In this document: positions 47,232-54,617 of the stretch, piece by piece
Position numbering within the stretch: position 1 is the stretch's first letter
Layout of the letters: every line of letters starts with the position of its first letter
Assembly (NCBI GenBank): GCA_028875575.1
Contig: JAPPDF010000052.1
Coordinates: 2,554-66,553 of the forward strand
Source of the DNA: Acidobacteriota bacterium
GTDB taxonomy: Bacteria; Acidobacteriota; Terriglobia; Versatilivoradales; Versatilivoraceae
Reading direction: 5' to 3'
DNA length: 64,000 bases
Program-made: the position numbers and the translations under genes
The notes under the pieces: model-generated
Database searches by the model: none
Told to the model about the DNA's origin: nothing
Seen by the model: only the letters and a program-made list of their open reading frames with translations

Positions 47232-48803
47232 GTGAACATTCTGCTTTTTTCGATGCCGGACTCGTTTGAGCACATGCCCACCGTGGCCATTCGCATGCCT
47301 AACGGAGCCCTGACGTCGCTTGCAGGCAACGTCGATTCACATCATCGCGTGTCTGTCGCCGATCTGATTCTGGTGCAATCTCAGGTTCGCCAAACCGTGA
47401 TTCGCCTGGTTCAGGAGTGTCAGCCGGATGTGGTCGGGCTATCGGTGATGACCTTCCAGCGCCATACTGCCCAAAAGATCATCAGCCTGGTGCGCCGGCT
47501 CAAGCCCGATGCCCATATCGTGGTGGGCGGCTACGACCCCAGCCTGGATCGGGTTGCCTACACCCGTCCTGTGCCCGGGAGGCCTGATTTTATCGTTCGC
47601 GGGGAAGGAGAGAAGACCTTTCGGGAGCTGCTGCAAGCCCTGGAAAACGGCAAGGATTACTCTGCCATCGCCGGTTTGTCGTATCGGCAGGGAGACCGAT
47701 TTCACCATAATCCGGAGCGCCCGGCAAGCTCACTGACGGGCGAGGAGGTCAAGCTTCCGCGCAGGGATTCCAGGGTTCTGCAGGGCTACACGTTGCTGGG
47801 GAGGCCGGTTGACGTTGTGGAGACCTCACGCGGTTGCACCTATGATTGCAGCTTTTGCTCAATCATCGAAATGCGGGGACGAAACTTCCACACCTACCAT
47901 ATCGAGCGGGTCATCGAGGATATTCGTGATGCCTACCAGCGGGGGGCCCGGGCCGTCTTCCTGGTGGACGACAACATCACGCTGAACGTGCACCGCTTTG
48001 AAGCCTTTTGCCAGGCAATCATCGACGCGGAGCTGAACGACGTCGACTACATTCTTCAAGGCATGACCTCGGCTCTGGCCAACCACGGGGAACGTCTGGC
48101 CCCGCTCATGCGCCGGGCCGGATTCCGCTATGTGTTCCTGGGAATTGAAAATATCCTGGAAGAAGATCTGAAATTCCTGCGGGCCAGCTCCAAGAACCAG
48201 GAGCGCCAGAATGGACGCTCTGTAGGCAATGCCTCCATTCGGGCGATCGAGTATCTCCATCAGAACGGGATCTACGTGGTCGGCGGACTTATCGTCGGGA
48301 ATCCGGACGATACCCGGGAATCCATCCTGACCAACCTGGAGTTCGCCAAAAAGTATATCGACTGGCCCTATATTCAACACCCCACACCCTATCCGGGCAC
48401 TCCCATGACCCTGGATTTCCGCGCCCGCAATCTGATCATCAACGAAGCGCTGGAGGAATATGACGGCACCACCGCCGTGGTGAAGGCGGAGCACCTTTCG
48501 GCTCAGGAAATCGAGTTTCTGCGATGGCAGGCCGAGCGCTGGATCAAGACACGGCATTTCCCTACGGCGCTGTGGCACAGTCCCGGATTCGTGTTTCGGC
48601 ACGGGCACAAGATGCTGACCCATACCTTCAGGGGCAGCAGTTGGAAATCTGCGTTGGGGTTGGAATCGTCTCGTCAAGTCTATGAGCGCTACCAGGCCAT
48701 CCGCAAATCCGAACGGAACTACCTGCCACTTGAGGTTCCTTCCCGGGATGCCGCGGACATTCCGCGAGACACCTCTTCCCGGCCGGTCCGAAAAACCGCA
48801 TAG
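47232..48803 (+). CDS. B12-binding domain-containing radical SAM protein (class B)
   Basis: N-terminal cobalamin-binding fold followed by radical SAM CxxxCxxC (CTYDCSFCS). GTG start 5 nt after AGGAGG. Confidence 0.8.
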   Translation: MNILLFSMPDSFEHMPTVAIRMPNGALTSLAGNVDSHHRVSVADLILVQSQVRQTVIRLVQECQPDVVGLSVMTFQRHTAQKIISLVRRLKPDAHIVVGGYDPSLDRVAYTRPVPGRPDFIVRGEGEKTFRELLQALENGKDYSAIAGLSYRQGDRFHHNPERPASSLTGEEVKLPRRDSRVLQGYTLLGRPVDVVETSRGCTYDCSFCSIIEMRGRNFHTYHIERVIEDIRDAYQRGARAVFLVDDNITLNVHRFEAFCQAIIDAELNDVDYILQGMTSALANHGERLAPLMRRAGFRYVFLGIENILEEDLKFLRASSKNQERQNGRSVGNASIRAIEYLHQNGIYVVGGLIVGNPDDTRESILTNLEFAKKYIDWPYIQHPTPYPGTPMTLDFRARNLIINEALEEYDGTTAVVKAEHLSAQEIEFLRWQAERWIKTRHFPTALWHSPGFVFRHGHKMLTHTFRGSSWKSALGLESSRQVYERYQAIRKSERNYLPLEVPSRDAADIPRDTSSRPVRKTA

Positions 48804-48876
48804 GTCCCCCATTATCTCTATCTTCTCCGATTCCAGCCGCCAATCCGTTGATTCTCAAGCTCCTGGTTCCTGCGTC

Positions 48877-50778
48877 ATGAAGCGTCCCTCGAGATATCTG
48901 CGCCTCATTCCGTGGCTGCGATGGGGCTTGCCGGTGTTGCTGCTCAGCCTGCCGGCAGTCACCGTGAAAATCCTTCCTCAGGAATGGCCCCACTACGGGG
49001 GGGATCTGGCCGCACGGAAATATTCGGCTCTGGACCAGATCAACCGGGACAACGTCGCGAAACTGAAGGTCGCGTGGACCTACCATACCGGTGATGTCAG
49101 CGATGGATCGAAGTATCCGGTGCGGTCTGCTTTCGAATGCACACCCCTGGAGGTGGACGGAGTCCTTTACCTGACCACCCCCTTTGGCCGCGCGGTCGCC
49201 CTGGACTCGGCGACCGGTAAGGAGCTCTGGGCCTTCGACCCCAATCTCGACAAGCATCGGCCCTACAACCTGTTCATCAATCGCGGCCCGGCCTATTGGC
49301 GCCGGGGCAAGCAGAAACGGCTCTATTGGGGAACACTGGACGGGCGGCTGTTCGGCTTGAATGCCCGCACCGGACGGCCGGTTGCGAGTTTCGGCAGCGG
49401 CGGTGTCCTGAACCTTAGAGCTGGCATGGCCGACCGCTTTCCCAAGCGTATCTACGGGGTGAGTTCACCTCCATTGATTTTTGAGAACCTGGTAATTGTG
49501 GGCTCGGTGGTGTCGGACGGCCTGCCCGAGGGACCCGATGGAGATGTCCGCGCCTTCGATGCCGATACGGGGCGACTGGTCTGGCGGTTCAACACGGTAC
49601 CCGGTCCCGGAGAGTTGGGGAACGACACCTGGGAAGGAGAATCCTGGAAGGGCCGGGGAGGGACCAACGTCTGGGCTCCCATGAGTTGCGATGCCGAACG
49701 AGGCATCCTCTATCTCCCGGTGAGCTCTCCTTCCCCGGACCGATACGGAGGCGGGCGCAAGGGGAAGAACTGGTTCGGGGATTGCCTGGTCGCCCTGGAC
49801 ATTCGCACCGGGCGGCGTCTGTGGCACTACCAGATCACTCATCATGATCTTTGGGACTGGGACCTGCCGGCGCAACCCAATCTGGTTGACGTGCGCCGCC
49901 AGGGAACCATCGTGCCTGCGGTGGCCCAAATCACCAAGATGGGTTACGTCTTCCTGTTCGATCGGGTGACGGGAAAACCCCTGTTCCCGATTGAGGAGCG
50001 GCCCGTTCCCCCCAGTCCGGTTCCCGGAGAGGAAGCCTGGCCGACCCAGCCGGTGCCGCTCAAGCCTCCGGCCATTGCCCGTCAAGGAATGACAGCCGAC
50101 GAGATCAATCGGCTGGACCCCGAAACGGAGGCCGAGTGCCGGACAATTCTAAAGAATGCAAACCTGGGCAAGATGTATCAACCGCCAGGCCTGGAGTACA
50201 CGGTGCTGTTCCCGGGCACCAACGGCGGACCCAATTGGGGCGGGGCATCCTACGATCCCACCTTGAACTTGTTGTTCGTCAACTCCATGGACGTGGGCCA
50301 GGTGGTGAAGATGGTGGAAGGGCGGGCAGGGAGTCGACTGCCCTATATGGCCCGGGGAATTCGGCAGGGACGTTTCTGGGATTCCAGGCGGCTGCCCTGT
50401 CAGGTTCCCCCCTGGGGAACCCTGACGGCTATCGACCTGAACCGTGGAAGCCTGCGCTGGCAGGTGCCGCTCGGCCTGGTGGAAGAACTGGCAGCTCGCG
50501 GGATCACCGAAACAGGCTCACCCAACCTGGGCGGCTCCATCGTAACAGCCGGCGGCCTGGTGTTTATTGCGGCCACCAATGACCGCCGCATTCGAGCCTT
50601 CCACTCTGAAACGGGCCGCCAGCTTTGGGTGACCCGGCTGGATTTCAGCGGGCACGCAACCCCCATGACCTTCTGGTCGAAGCGTTTGAAGAAGCAACTG
50701 GTGGTCATCGCCGCCGGTGGCGGCAACAAGTACAACGACAGTTACGGCGATGCCCTGGTAGCCTTCGCCTTGCCTTGA
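48877..50778 (+). CDS. PQQ-dependent dehydrogenase (quinoprotein, 8-bladed beta-propeller) with signal peptide
   Basis: Repeated W-motif propeller blades (…GVLYLTT…, …GKELWAF…, …GRLVWRF…, …GRRLWHY…, …GRQLWVT…). N-terminal signal MKRPSRYLRLIPWLRWGLPVLLLSLPAVT. Confidence 0.85.
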   Translation: MKRPSRYLRLIPWLRWGLPVLLLSLPAVTVKILPQEWPHYGGDLAARKYSALDQINRDNVAKLKVAWTYHTGDVSDGSKYPVRSAFECTPLEVDGVLYLTTPFGRAVALDSATGKELWAFDPNLDKHRPYNLFINRGPAYWRRGKQKRLYWGTLDGRLFGLNARTGRPVASFGSGGVLNLRAGMADRFPKRIYGVSSPPLIFENLVIVGSVVSDGLPEGPDGDVRAFDADTGRLVWRFNTVPGPGELGNDTWEGESWKGRGGTNVWAPMSCDAERGILYLPVSSPSPDRYGGGRKGKNWFGDCLVALDIRTGRRLWHYQITHHDLWDWDLPAQPNLVDVRRQGTIVPAVAQITKMGYVFLFDRVTGKPLFPIEERPVPPSPVPGEEAWPTQPVPLKPPAIARQGMTADEINRLDPETEAECRTILKNANLGKMYQPPGLEYTVLFPGTNGGPNWGGASYDPTLNLLFVNSMDVGQVVKMVEGRAGSRLPYMARGIRQGRFWDSRRLPCQVPPWGTLTAIDLNRGSLRWQVPLGLVEELAARGITETGSPNLGGSIVTAGGLVFIAATNDRRIRAFHSETGRQLWVTRLDFSGHATPMTFWSKRLKKQLVVIAAGGGNKYNDSYGDALVAFALP

Positions 50779-50802
50779 ACTATCGTCGGACCGGTCGCCC
50801 CC

Positions 50803-51363
50803 ATGCCCAAAATCCCGGAGGGTCTGCTACATTGGGGTGCCAGAACGTCGATTCAGACGATCTGCCTGGCCTTGCTGGCGGCGATCCCCTGGATCTCCGG
50901 TGCTTACCAAGTTTCGTCGCAGAGTCGGAACGATACGCAGCCGCTCTCGCAACCGCTCCCCTTCAGCCATCGCAGCCATAGTCAACTGGGGTTGAATTGC
51001 TCCACCTGCCATAGCATGGAGGGTAGAGGCGGCAGCGCAGGCTTTCCTCCCGTAGCTCTTTGCCTGTCCTGTCACCGTGGAGGCAAGGGAGAAATCACGC
51101 CTGTTGGAGTCTCGTTGGAGGGCTACGAGCAAAGGGGCGAAACCATTCCCTGGGTCCGGGTCTACAAGATCCCCGATTTCGTGTTCTTCAGCCACAAGGA
51201 GCACCTGGACTCAGGAGCCACCTGCACGACCTGCCACGGTGCGGTGGAGCTGCGGGACAGGCTCAAGCAAGAGGTCCCGACTTCAATGGAGCATTGCATG
51301 GATTGCCACAAGTCTCGGGGAGCCTCCCTGGAATGCCATTTCTGCCACGAGTTGAACCAGTGA
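50803..51363 (+). CDS. Pentaheme c-type cytochrome
   Basis: Five CxxCH motifs (CSTCH, CLSCH, CTTCH, CMDCH, CHFCH) in 186 aa, with N-terminal signal/anchor. Immediately downstream of the PQQ dehydrogenase. Confidence 0.8.
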   Translation: MPKIPEGLLHWGARTSIQTICLALLAAIPWISGAYQVSSQSRNDTQPLSQPLPFSHRSHSQLGLNCSTCHSMEGRGGSAGFPPVALCLSCHRGGKGEITPVGVSLEGYEQRGETIPWVRVYKIPDFVFFSHKEHLDSGATCTTCHGAVELRDRLKQEVPTSMEHCMDCHKSRGASLECHFCHELNQ

Positions 51364-51438
51364 CGACCGCGGTAGATAACCCGCGAGTGACCGGTGATCC
51401 ATAATCTGTATTGATAGTTGGCATAAACAAAACTGATT

Positions 51439-51466
51439 TTGACCATCGGAGCGGTAACTCTACAAT
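51439..51466 (+). promoter_or_regulatory. Sigma70-like promoter TTGACC-N16-TACAAT
   Basis: Near-consensus -35 and -10 hexamers in an AT-richer island between the cytochrome and porin genes. Confidence 0.35.
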
Positions 51467-51472
51467 GAGCTC

Positions 51473-51610
51473 ACTTCTTCGATACAGAGCCGTATCGAGG
51501 GGGATAGATCGCCCACCGCCGACGGGAGTGGCCCGGTGGTGGTGATTTGGACAGAGACGTCCATTGGATCCGAGCGGGGACTCGTGCCGATGGACGTCTT
51601 TTTTTATTTG
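51473..51610 (+). ncRNA. Candidate small RNA or terminated leader (about 140 nt) between promoter 51439-51466 and the intrinsic terminator
   Basis: Promoter followed about 80 nt later by a GC-rich hairpin (AGACGTCCATTGG…CCGATGGACGTCT) and a T9 run. No plausible ORF inside. Confidence 0.35.
51555..51610 (+). terminator. Rho-independent terminator (13-bp stem, T-rich tail)
   Basis: Inverted repeat AGACGTCCATTGG / CCGATGGACGTCT followed by TTTTTTTTATTT. Confidence 0.6.
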
Positions 51611-51668
51611 GGGCCTCTATAGGGTTCCGCAAGAAGGGACTAATGGGACCGGAAAGGAATGGAAAGCA

Positions 51669-52955
51669 ATGAAAACGAATTGGGCCAGGTTGCTTATGGC
51701 TGGACTGCTGGCCTCGGGTTTGTCGAGTGGGGCGACCCTTGCGCAGGACAGCAGTCAGGAGGAGTTGCTGGAACGAATCAAGAAACTGGAGGAGCGGATC
51801 GCTGAACTGGAAGGGACGAGCAAAGCCACTTCCAAGGAAGCCGAACCGGCCGCCGACGCCGCACCCGGCGAGGCGGCTGCTCCTGAGGCGGAAGCCAGTG
51901 ACACGGCGCCCATACTGGATTTTTTCAAGGCGACCAAAGTCAGTGGATATGTCGATGCCTATTACGGCTACAACTCAAACGATCCCGATAGCGGTATTGT
52001 CGACCTTCGTGGCCTGGATACCAGGCACAACAGCTTTCAGTTCGATCTGGCAAAAATAGTATTCGACCGGCCTGCCGGCGAGACCAACAGCCTGGGCTAC
52101 CGCATCGACCTGGTCTACGGTCCGGCGGCCGACACCTACCACTCATTTGAACCCGTTGGCGGCCAGCAGGAAATCATCAAAAACATTCAACAGGCCTACG
52201 TGAGCTACATCGCCCCAGTCGGTGACGGCCTGACCGTCGATGTCGGAAAGTTCGGAACCTTTGTGGGTGCGGAAGTGCTCGACACCATCGACAACTTTCA
52301 ATACCAGCAATCGATTCTCTTCGGCTTCGCCCAGCCCTATTACCACACCGGAGTCCGCACCAGCTATTCGGTTTCAGACACGGTGGACGTGGGCTTCTAT
52401 CTTGTGAACGGTTGGAACAATTCCACCGACAACAATACCGGGAAGAGCGTCGGCTGGTCGATCGCCGTTTCGCCGAACGACAATTTCAGCATCAGTCAGG
52501 GGTATCTGGGAGGCCCGGAGCTGGACGGCATCAACAGTCCCTGGCGGCACCTCTTCGACACTGTGATCAGCGCCAGCGTCAACGACCAGGTGGAGGTGCT
52601 GATCAACTATGACTATGGATACGATGCCGCGGACCTGCCCCATTTCGAGCGAACGGCCTGGCAGGGCATTGCCGGCGCCGTGCGTTTCAGCACGACCGAC
52701 AAGAAGTGGGCTTTTTCACCACGCTTTGAATACTTCGCGGACAAAGATGCCTTTGCTACCGGGATCTCCCAGGACCTGAAGGAAATCACCCTGACGGCCG
52801 ACTATCGGGCGCGCCCGAACTTCAGCACCAAGTTCGAATACCGCTACGACTGGTCTGACCAGCCCTTCTTCGTCTCGGGAGCCGACGACCTGGTCACGAG
52901 CCAGAGCGTTTTCCTGATTGGGTTCGTGTACAGCTTTGGTTTCGGCGACGAGTGA
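51669..52955 (+). CDS. Outer-membrane porin-like beta-barrel protein with N-terminal coiled-coil segment
   Basis: Signal peptide (MKTNWARLLMAGLLASGLSSGATLA|QD), coiled-coil (EELLERIKKLEERIAELE), beta-rich body, C-terminal FVYSFGF(GDE). Confidence 0.6.
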   Translation: MKTNWARLLMAGLLASGLSSGATLAQDSSQEELLERIKKLEERIAELEGTSKATSKEAEPAADAAPGEAAAPEAEASDTAPILDFFKATKVSGYVDAYYGYNSNDPDSGIVDLRGLDTRHNSFQFDLAKIVFDRPAGETNSLGYRIDLVYGPAADTYHSFEPVGGQQEIIKNIQQAYVSYIAPVGDGLTVDVGKFGTFVGAEVLDTIDNFQYQQSILFGFAQPYYHTGVRTSYSVSDTVDVGFYLVNGWNNSTDNNTGKSVGWSIAVSPNDNFSISQGYLGGPELDGINSPWRHLFDTVISASVNDQVEVLINYDYGYDAADLPHFERTAWQGIAGAVRFSTTDKKWAFSPRFEYFADKDAFATGISQDLKEITLTADYRARPNFSTKFEYRYDWSDQPFFVSGADDLVTSQSVFLIGFVYSFGFGDE

Positions 52956-52967
52956 TGGCGCTTGGCG

Positions 52968-54116
52968 TCAACCTTCCTTCGTTTCCGCAATGTCGGTGAC
53001 TTCCATCTTTCCATGGGTGGCCAGGTAGATGGCCAGTCCAATGGTTACGACCAGGATCCCCAGAGCTGCCAGCAGCAGATGGCGGTTCATGGTATCGACG
53101 GCGATATGGGTTTCGCTCATGTCCTGTTCGACAATGGAGATCCAACGGAGTTGGGGGTATTTCGACGACAGGGCCAACTTCCTGAACGCCACCATCTTTC
53201 TGCCGCCGCCCAGGGCCGTGGCTTCAATGAAGTCCGGCTGACCCGGCTGCCGCAGTGCGTTGAGAATTTCATCGAAATAGGGCACCTCCATCAGTTGAGC
53301 GGCCACCAGGTGGCCGGAATCCTCACTCTCCGTGGAGGTGGGATCACCAGTCTGAGCAGGGGGGAAGTCCACCACCTCGCTGCCGATGATGGTGCCGTCT
53401 TCCCGAGCCAACGACATGTTTCCAGTGGCTCCGATGGGAGTTCCCGTAACCAGAAGAAAAAGGTCGCTGATGTCAACGGCCACCCCGATGACCCCGATGA
53501 CTTCCTCCGGCGATTTGTTCGCCACGGGGACGACGATGTGAAGCACGTTGATCTGGGTCAGGGGGTCGAAACGGACATCCTCAATGACCACCTGGCCGGT
53601 GACGCCATCCCTGAAGCTCTGGCGCCACCAGGGTTCGTCCCCCTGCTCGAAGTCGATGGGCTTGACGTTGGCCGCCACCGTCCCGCCGAATCGATCGGTA
53701 ACGGTGATGCGCCGAAAGGCCGGATTGATGGCCACGAAGCCTCTCAAGTATCGGGAGGCAGGGTTGGAGAGAATCCGTTGAACCGTGGCTTCCCCCCGAG
53801 GTTGCAGCCAAGCTTGCTCGATGGCCGTGATTTTTCGGCGCACCGCGTCGGGGGATCTCGGATAGGAGGCGTTTCCGGCCACAATAGCAGCTTGAACCGC
53901 GGCGTTCACGGCCAAGGTTTCCACTTCTCTGACCAGGTTGTTGACGGCATAGCTCATGGTGGCTGCGTTGTTTCCGGAAATAGCCCTGAAGTTGGCCGCT
54001 ACTTCCTCTTCGATAGCGGTCTTGGCCTGGTCGACTGTGAAGAAAATAACGATCCAGGTCGGGAGGTTGGCCAATATCAGCACGATCACGGCTGTGCGCA
54101 AATCGATGCGTCTCAT
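52968..54116 (-). CDS. Membrane-anchored periplasmic sensor-like (Cache/PDC-like) protein with two TM helices and no cytoplasmic output domain
   Basis: TM1 (AVIVLILANLPTWIVIFF), about 300-aa periplasmic region, TM2 (LLLAALGILVVTIGLAIYL), then only 15 residues. ATG 54116 with AAGGAGG 6 nt upstream. Confidence 0.5.
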   Translation of the reverse strand: MRRIDLRTAVIVLILANLPTWIVIFFTVDQAKTAIEEEVAANFRAISGNNAATMSYAVNNLVREVETLAVNAAVQAAIVAGNASYPRSPDAVRRKITAIEQAWLQPRGEATVQRILSNPASRYLRGFVAINPAFRRITVTDRFGGTVAANVKPIDFEQGDEPWWRQSFRDGVTGQVVIEDVRFDPLTQINVLHIVVPVANKSPEEVIGVIGVAVDISDLFLLVTGTPIGATGNMSLAREDGTIIGSEVVDFPPAQTGDPTSTESEDSGHLVAAQLMEVPYFDEILNALRQPGQPDFIEATALGGGRKMVAFRKLALSSKYPQLRWISIVEQDMSETHIAVDTMNRHLLLAALGILVVTIGLAIYLATHGKMEVTDIAETKEG

Positions 54117-54617
54117 GATGCCTCCTTTGGCAAACGTCTGTAGGGGGTTTGCTGATTCAAGTCTATTGGCTGGGTAGGCAATCGTCAAGCGAGGCCATAG
54201 TCGGTTGCGGATCTCGAAATAATGGCATTCGAGGAATGAGGACGTGTTCTCGACCTCCCTTTCTACAGGCACTCGCCAATCCCTCGAACCGATGTCGCGA
54301 GTGGAAACCGGGACGCATTCTCTTGGAAACCGTAGCCATCAGGATGCACGGCGAGCCTGTTTTTGGGCCGCATAACCCTCTCGGGGAATCATTGGTCATT
54401 GACTTCAAAAAAGGACTTATGCTAAAAATCCTGCGGCTTACCTACAGGGTCCGGCGAATGCGTGTTCCTTGAGGTTCTCGAGCGTTGCGCAATCGACGGT
54501 AGCCATTCCCAGCCTGACACTTCCAGAACCGGCCAACGGCTGTTCCGTGTCCTTCTCCATGGTTCCATCTGAGGTCTTTTCGATTCTGGCCTCCTGCAAC
54601 ATCACCAAGGTCATTTC

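Follow-up and report, generated by a model that had tools for sequence, protein, structure and literature searches.

The RNA target of ANTAR-domain proteins is defined by two hairpins that have stems of at least 3 bp and hexaloops with A at position 1 (A1) and G at position 4 (G4); the second of these hairpins overlaps the 5′ base of an intrinsic terminator (PMC3369931, PMC8934654, PMC10783516). In the NalA leader of Pseudomonas and the nasF leader of Klebsiella, binding of the ANTAR protein to the loops leads to read-through into nitrogen-assimilation genes (PMC10783516, PMC3369931). Similarly, the REC-ANTAR protein GnfR of Geobacter relieves premature termination in the leaders of nitrogen-limitation genes (PMC2995071). 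The eut leaders are bound by a dimeric protein (PMC3369931, PMC8934654). Their linkers span 5–12 nt, and changes in this length, including an extension of 20 nt, abolish antitermination by EutV (PMC8934654). The rule used to curate ANTAR targets accepts linkers of 2–25 nt (PMC8164766).

The present study concerns a stretch of 64,000 nucleotides from an Acidobacteriota bacterium (hereafter, the window), in which a promoter and a terminator precede a porin gene. Acidobacteriota are hard to culture and, to our knowledge, almost no RNA regulation has been described in them. MicF, MicA, and MicC are structured porin-regulating sRNAs that have their own promoter and Rho-independent terminator and lie beside a porin gene; sRNAs of the MicF type pair with their targets in trans as antisense RNAs, and typically lie apart from the target gene or diverge from it. 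An earlier note on this DNA proposed either an independent trans-acting sRNA or a transcription-attenuation leader controlling the porin. The present results support the latter and sharpen it to a putative ANTAR-type (NasT/NasR/GnfR-like) antitermination leader, based on two hexaloops and on a second hairpin that excludes the terminator.

Architecture and conservation of the leader

Coordinates refer to the + strand unless otherwise stated. The sigma-70-type promoter TTGACC-16 nt-TACAAT was found at 51439–51466, exactly as the earlier note had read it, by a consensus scan and by conservation among orthologs. Transcription is predicted from this promoter to start at approximately A51473. A single pair of promoter-like hexamers is no better than chance (1 observed and 1.2 expected in the 4 kb between 49500 and 53500); therefore, the reality of the element rests on its conservation. 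The ortholog set comprised 15 orthologous loci from Ca. Versatilivorator-type Acidobacteriota, or 16 when the window is counted. All 16 share an invariant -35 box and a -10 box of the form TA[C/A/T]AAT, separated by exactly 16 nt; the sequence of this spacer changes among the orthologs, but its length does not. The promoter had also been placed in an AT-richer island, which is present (GC 0.45 over 51380–51499 versus approximately 0.60 in the flanking genes), although the contrast is modest.

An AT-rich conserved block (ATCCATAATCTGTATTGATAGTTGGCATAAACAAAACTGATT; 51398–51438) abuts the -35 box. It has many invariant columns across the 16 orthologs and is retained even in the most distant ones, L012 and L013. 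The block contains CATAAT and CATAAA with approximately two helical turns between them, and we speculate that it may serve either as an UP element or as the site of a transcription factor that adds a further layer of control to the attenuator. A sigma-54 promoter in this block (TGGCAT...) was rejected on inspection because TTGC is absent at -12 and TGGCAT is lost in L012 and L013. Further upstream, just past the stop codon of a cytochrome gene, a small hairpin without a T-run (CGCGG-TAGATAAC-CCGCG, 51368–51385) is conserved in the closest orthologs only.

No meaningful open reading frame lies within the transcript, in agreement with the earlier reading. The start of a 44-aa frame at 51411–51545 precedes the promoter, and its sole in-frame ATG belongs to the -10 box. 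A leader peptide was rejected on these grounds: the only frame begins 5′ of the promoter and is disrupted in L015 and L010 by 1-nt indels. CsrA-type GGA sites were also rejected on inspection, as the GGA triplets are buried in helices.

The predicted transcript contains three hairpins. The first hexaloop hairpin (P1, 51474–51503), identified from minimum free energy (MFE) folds and two compensatory pairs, has a 12-bp stem and the loop AGAGCC at 51486–51491, which carries A1 and G4. Orthologs carry AGAGCC, AAAGCC, AGAGTC, AGAGCG, AAAGTG, or AAAGCT, and A1 and G4 are always kept. The middle, inserted hairpin (H2, 51507–51547), which is supported by folding and by RNAalifold covariation, is 41 nt long and accounts for all but a few of the 44 nt that link P1 to P2; it lies flush with P2 and 2–3 nt from P1. 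The linker folded alone has a dG of -22.5 kcal/mol. The H2 sequence differs in L011, L014, L013, and L012, yet the hairpin is retained, and both its sequence and its length vary freely across loci. The second hexaloop hairpin, or antiterminator (P2, UGGAC-AGAGAC-GUCCA, 51548–51563), was identified from nascent folds and conservation. It has a 5-bp stem and a loop at 51553–51558 with A1 and G4, and is invariant among the orthologs except for the loop variant ATAGAC, in which A1 and G4 are kept. The segment AC-AGAGCC-GU around the loop of the first hairpin thus reappears as AC-AGAGAC-GU, where it overlaps the terminator.

The intrinsic terminator hairpin (51555–51599) is mutually exclusive with P2: the 3′ strand of P2 (51559–51563) and part of its loop fall within the terminator 5′ arm (51555–51567). 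The terminator is supported by its dG (-25.9 kcal/mol), by shuffling (z = -4.25), and by conservation. The earlier description of its stem as 13 bp of GC holds for the 13 outer pairs, to which a 4-bp inner stem is added, but the stem is not purely G+C; the hairpin does lie downstream of the -10 box, at a distance of 88 nt rather than about 80 nt. The tail had been given as T9 and is in fact T7-A-T3 (51599–51609), a T-run conserved in all orthologs, in which a terminated leader of approximately 135 nt would end. Our automated terminator scan missed this hairpin because its loop rule allows only 3–8 nt. The following spacer, or 5′ UTR (51610–51668), is poorly conserved according to the alignment and the promoter scan, and includes a purine-rich ribosome-binding region (GGAAAGGAAUGGAAAG) at approximately 51651–51666.

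We conclude that the promoter and terminator 5′ of the porin are real and conserved. The earlier note had suggested a search for homologous loci upstream of orthologous porins, and the entire intergenic element aligned in 15 of the 15 loci retrieved. The 146 nt from the -10 box to the tail fold into three hairpins with z = -4.55, and RNAalifold, run independently, recovered the same three hairpins with eight compensatory pairs, two in P1 and six in H2. The P1 and P2 stems are kept in the 15 orthologs (about 97–98.5% of cells paired). Positions 2, 5, and 6 of the hexaloops vary, A1 and G4 are invariant in both loops in 15/15 orthologs, and the closing C-G pairs are conserved. The three hairpins occupy nearly the whole RNA, and the conserved bases lie almost entirely in helices or in the two hexaloops.

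The terminator is 99.5–100% paired and nearly invariant in sequence among the orthologs. Plain terminators drift in sequence, and a near-invariant stem is, judged from the alignment, atypical for one. Near-invariance of P2 and the terminator is expected because one sequence must serve two exclusive helices. Since neither varies, covariation neither backs nor contradicts them. P1-H2-P2 is the MFE fold for every nascent transcript ending between 51563 and 51586. In the full-length leader, P2 gives way to the terminator, and a fold constrained to keep P2 is 15.6 kcal/mol less stable. As the completed terminator outcompetes P2, the default state is predicted to be termination after approximately 135 nt. 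Both strands of the 64 kb together contain a single case of the composite signature, in which a terminator is overlapped by an A..G.. hexaloop hairpin, and 10 shuffles contained none; a relaxed structural scan of the window revealed no other ANTAR-like leader. The distant porin homologues L018 and L019 do not have such a leader upstream.

The porin gene and metagenomic relatives of the leader

The gene downstream, which the earlier note had called a porin gene, encodes a BBP2/OmpL-like outer-membrane beta-barrel porin of 428 aa (51669–52955; PF07642, E = 3.4e-77). Its ATG at 51669 lies 59 nt past the tail, as previously stated, and the protein is 97% identical to that of a Ca. V. vitaminiformans MAG, which places the source of the window among Ca. 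Versatilivorator-type acidobacteria. The element is co-oriented with and immediately 5′ of the porin gene in 16/16 orthologs. A promoter scan of 49500–53500 and the alignment of the 16 orthologs revealed no promoter that is conserved in the interval from the terminator to the porin ATG. A deletion shortens this gap to 31 nt in L006; together with the lack of a second promoter, this implies that porin transcription must traverse the terminator.

In four loci, glnD (PII uridylyltransferase) follows the porin gene on the same strand, and in one of these, L076, amtB comes after the porin and glnD. The apparent operons span L046:1353–5590, L076:5637–12269 (- strand), L135:772–4958, and L011:2965–7315, the last being a Versatilivoraceae chromosome. 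As far as gene order can indicate function, this porin-glnD-amtB linkage firmly puts the porin in nitrogen-status control, and suggests that the porin admits a nitrogen source. In the lineage of the window, the porin gene is monocistronic and stands alone among housekeeping genes, facing a convergent Cache-domain gene; therefore, the glnD linkage appears to have been lost or moved. The convergent neighbour (52968–54272, - strand) encodes 434 aa in which the dCache_1 sensor domain alone is recognisable (E = 5e-18). It has no identifiable output domain and is not an ANTAR protein.

Upstream of the leader and on the same strand, 48682–51363 encodes a 698-aa PQQ-dependent dehydrogenase followed by a 186-aa multihaem cytochrome. 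The former is of the glucose/quinate/shikimate membrane-bound type, with all NCBIfam matches below the curated cut-offs, and the latter has weak QrcA-like and cytochrome c7 similarity. The cytochrome may be the electron acceptor of the dehydrogenase.

We scanned a metagenome collection without bias for GGACANAGACGTCC-N18-45-GGRCGTYTTTT. The core GGAC-AnAGAC-GUCC...GGRCGUYUUUU was found in at least 120 loci, drawn from habitats that include soils and sediments. Most of the listed core loci also have an A..G.. hexaloop hairpin further upstream, often just 2–9 nt from P2, and at least 28 core loci have a sigma-54 promoter. Among the matches listed, the genes directly 3′ of the core form a nitrogen-assimilation set that includes NrtA-like binding proteins, NirC-type nitrite channels, and NirB-type reductases; further genes in this position encode glutamine synthetase (GlnA), AmtB, NadE, cyanase (CynS), NifA-like activators, and several porin families. 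An ANTAR gene adjoins the core in at least 38 loci among the matches listed, and the six verified by Pfam are of the REC-ANTAR or GAF-ANTAR type.

Other genes were less expected in this position. An OmpA-cupredoxin fusion lipoprotein follows the core in at least seven loci (L030, L051, L102, L121, and similar loci), FlpD-like hydrogenase delta subunits in L080, L085, and L130, a DUF3034 protein in L120, and NifA-like GAF-sigma54 activators in L039 and L067. These findings suggest that nitrogen-linked ANTAR regulons are larger and more varied than usually described.

A subset of the core loci shares the three-hairpin layout. Its traits are a P1 of the form GAUAC-hexaloop-GUAUC, a linker of 44–61 nt with a hairpin abutting P2, and a terminator that begins ...GUCCAUUGG. 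Among the matches listed, tblastn identified a BBP2 porin in 14 of the 18 subclass loci with enough downstream DNA, with the element in the same orientation and position before the porin gene as in the window. An additional subclass locus, L092, has a BBP2 porin identified by Pfam. No BBP2 porin was found in the 88 listed loci with full upstream sequence and another P1 type; the one other tblastn porin match, L068, lacks its upstream end, and its P1 type is not visible. On this comparison of loci, the three-hairpin subclass is specifically linked to BBP2 porins.

The P1 loop departs from the canonical form in a soil sister clade (L031, L071, L092, L096, L106, L131, and L135), in which P1 lies approximately 60–75 nt upstream of the GGACAGAGACGTCC core. 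The loops are GGUGUA, GGUGCU, GGUGUG, GGUGCG, and GGUGUU, with G for the canonical A at position 1 and G4 kept. A GCCGAC-GGUGAA-GUCGGC hairpin also lies upstream in nirC-type loci (e.g., L038, L041, and L042). We speculate that some ANTAR proteins may recognise GGUG-type loops as an alternative variant; the GGUGNN clade raises some doubt as to whether P1 is read canonically.

Proposed antitermination and its alternatives

We consider it likely, with good confidence, that a cis-acting, protein-dependent ANTAR-type antitermination leader gates the BBP2 porin within a nitrogen-status regulon. Transcription would begin at the conserved sigma-70-type promoter, and the nascent RNA would fold into the adjacent hairpins P1, H2, and P2, displaying the hexaloops AGAGCC and AGAGAC. 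When the regulator is absent, synthesis of the 3′ arm would allow the stabler terminator to displace the 5-bp P2, and transcription would stop after approximately 135 nt (default OFF). An ANTAR-domain protein in its activated form, NasT, GnfR, or GAF-ANTAR-like and probably dimeric, would bind both hexaloops. P2 held by the protein would block the terminator, and polymerase would read into the porin gene. In this scheme, H2 may act as a folded spacer that holds P1 next to P2 across the 44-nt linker. The signal may be nitrogen limitation, to which GnfR responds (PMC2995071), or nitrate/nitrite, the signal of NasT and NasR.

The window leader shares three structural features with ANTAR targets. 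Both hairpins have a hexaloop on a stem of at least 3 bp (12 bp in P1 and 5 bp in P2), both loops carry A1 and G4 in all 15 orthologs (GGUGNN occurring in the P1 loops of the soil sister clade), and P2 overlaps the 5′ base of the terminator in exclusive folds. However, the linker is not short, at 44 nt here and 44–61 nt across the subclass. Folding of H2 leaves approximately 3 nt and 0 nt of the linker single-stranded, and the folded H2 may satisfy the spatial requirement despite the 44 nt.

Neither the 64-kb window (best E approximately 1) nor the 3 kb flanking each of the 15 orthologous loci (L002–L017) was found to encode an ANTAR-domain protein (PF03861). The searches employed AmiR and Rv1626 sequences and then an HMM built from the 38 ANTAR neighbours. 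The acidobacterial locus L019 encodes an ANTAR protein. An Rfam scan of 50000–53500 in the window returned no match at E ≤ 10.

The absence of a nearby ANTAR gene would also fit a cis attenuator with another effector, either a metabolite riboswitch with P1 and H2 as the aptamer or a different RNA-binding protein. The non-canonical linker with its covarying extra hairpin, the GGUGNN loops of the sister clade, and the lack of an Rfam match for the window copy point in the same direction. However, the conserved nucleotides are exactly the ANTAR determinants, namely A1 and G4 in two hexaloops and their closing C-G pairs, and H2 is free to vary in sequence and length, unlike a ligand pocket. Moreover, the P2 core is identical to that of ANTAR-adjacent loci and to the 3′ part of the narK consensus. 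We regard a non-ANTAR effector as unlikely.

An independent trans-acting sRNA of approximately 135 nt, pairing with the porin or other mRNAs in the manner of MicF or MicA, is very unlikely. A conserved promoter and an efficient-looking terminator do bound a structured non-coding transcript, and the unusual sequence conservation of the terminator stem, taken alone, could suggest a seed region. However, the overlap of P2 with the terminator fully accounts for the invariant segment, and with almost all of the RNA folded into the three hairpins, no extended unpaired stretch is evident that is conserved and could act as a seed. The earlier proposal of an autonomous sRNA finds no support: the element invariably lies directly 5′ of the porin gene and on its strand, no conserved promoter intervenes before the ATG even where the gap is 31 nt, and in other phyla the core is found before unrelated nitrogen genes and beside ANTAR genes. 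The terminated leader would nevertheless accumulate, may act secondarily in trans, and would resemble an sRNA in RNA-seq. The terminated leader of Pseudomonas P11/NalA has reportedly been seen as an sRNA in the same way.

The cytochrome gene, on the same strand, ends approximately 190 nt before the hairpin, which would also halt upstream transcripts, but a constitutive terminator of the PQQ-dehydrogenase/cytochrome operon that neighbours the porin promoter by chance and acts as no switch is highly improbable, because the promoter sits 5′ of the terminator so that every porin transcript meets it, the terminator is invariant jointly with an overlapping hexaloop hairpin, and the composite motif is unique in the window, absent from shuffles, and common to at least 120 nitrogen-gene leaders.

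With the ANTAR-type leader proposed here, what was an anonymous pair of promoter and terminator becomes a specific regulatory switch that can be tested in Acidobacteriota, and an uncharacterised OmpL-like porin family would be tied to a nitrogen-status regulon (glnD and amtB). We further propose, tentatively and with slightly less than even confidence, that the three-hairpin loci form an uncatalogued subclass of ANTAR leaders with an obligatory covarying helper hairpin (a P1-H2-P2 platform), specific to acidobacterial BBP2 porin(-glnD-amtB) operons. If this is the case, outer-membrane permeability for a nitrogen source would be switched by antitermination in Acidobacteriota, some ANTAR proteins would read a geometry excluded by the published linker rules, and the GGUGNN clade would suggest that ANTAR proteins may accept G for A at loop position 1. 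Current Rfam models and short-linker ANTAR criteria would miss the whole subclass, which matters for the prediction of regulons in soil and sponge-symbiont genomes. Caution is also needed with transcriptomes, in which such leaders are expected to show up as abundant sRNAs.

Comparison with described leaders

In the literature, we found no direct precedent for a link between the narK motif and ANTAR proteins or for ANTAR-controlled porins. Porins go unmentioned in the supplements of Ramesh 2012, in which the single acidobacterium examined has no match.

The narK RNA (RF03032) is related to the window leader through its 3′ end. The two have the P2 core in common, as GACAAAGACGUC in the 3′ consensus of narK RNA and as GGACAGAGACGUCC in the window. 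However, the consensus P1 of RF03032 is the hexaloop hairpin CC-AACGGC-GG, whereas P1 of the window is GAUAC-AGAGCC-GUAUC, and the RF03032 linker is approximately 7 nt long, whereas that of the window is structured and spans 44 nt. The narK model also includes a sigma-54 -24/-12 box, which the window copy lacks. The window copy stays below the RF03032 gathering threshold of 43.2 bits, with the P2 core alone common to both; among canonical relatives, L145 scored 45.6 bits, above this threshold, and L089 scored 29.7 bits. The window has no match to the Pseudomonas sRNA P11 (RF00625, gathering threshold 70 bits), which we take to be the same RNA as NalA, and L089 matched it weakly at 23.7 bits.

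NalA (the Pseudomonas nirBD leader, NasT/NasS) and the Klebsiella nasF leader (NasR) resemble the window leader in having two A1/G4 hexaloop hairpins, the second of which competes with a terminator (PMC10783516, PMC3369931). However, NalA is 75 nt long, has a short linker, and controls nitrite reductase, whereas the window leader has a 41-nt inserted hairpin and a porin target. The window leader also differs in its sigma-70-type promoter, many of its canonical metagenomic relatives having sigma-54 promoters, in its occurrence in Acidobacteriota, and in having no adjacent nasT-like gene.

The eut leaders, the best-characterised dual-hexaloop ANTAR substrate, similarly carry A1 and G4 in both loops and have a P2 that overlaps the terminator (PMC3369931, PMC8934654). 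They belong to an ethanolamine regulon in another phylum and have linkers of 5–12 nt, whereas the window linker is 44 nt long but folded. The GnfR site GGC-AANGGC-GCC (PMC2995071) is the commonest P1 hexaloop type among the metagenomic matches listed. GnfR leaders have sigma-54 promoters and nif/gln targets, and neither a porin target nor a three-hairpin layout is described for them in that study (PMC2995071). Unlike sRNAs of the MicF type, the window element is co-oriented and obligatorily co-transcribed with the porin gene and carries the ANTAR determinants. The class of mechanism is well known; what is new is a layout with three hairpins, a sigma-70-type promoter, a porin(-glnD-amtB) target, and an acidobacterial host.
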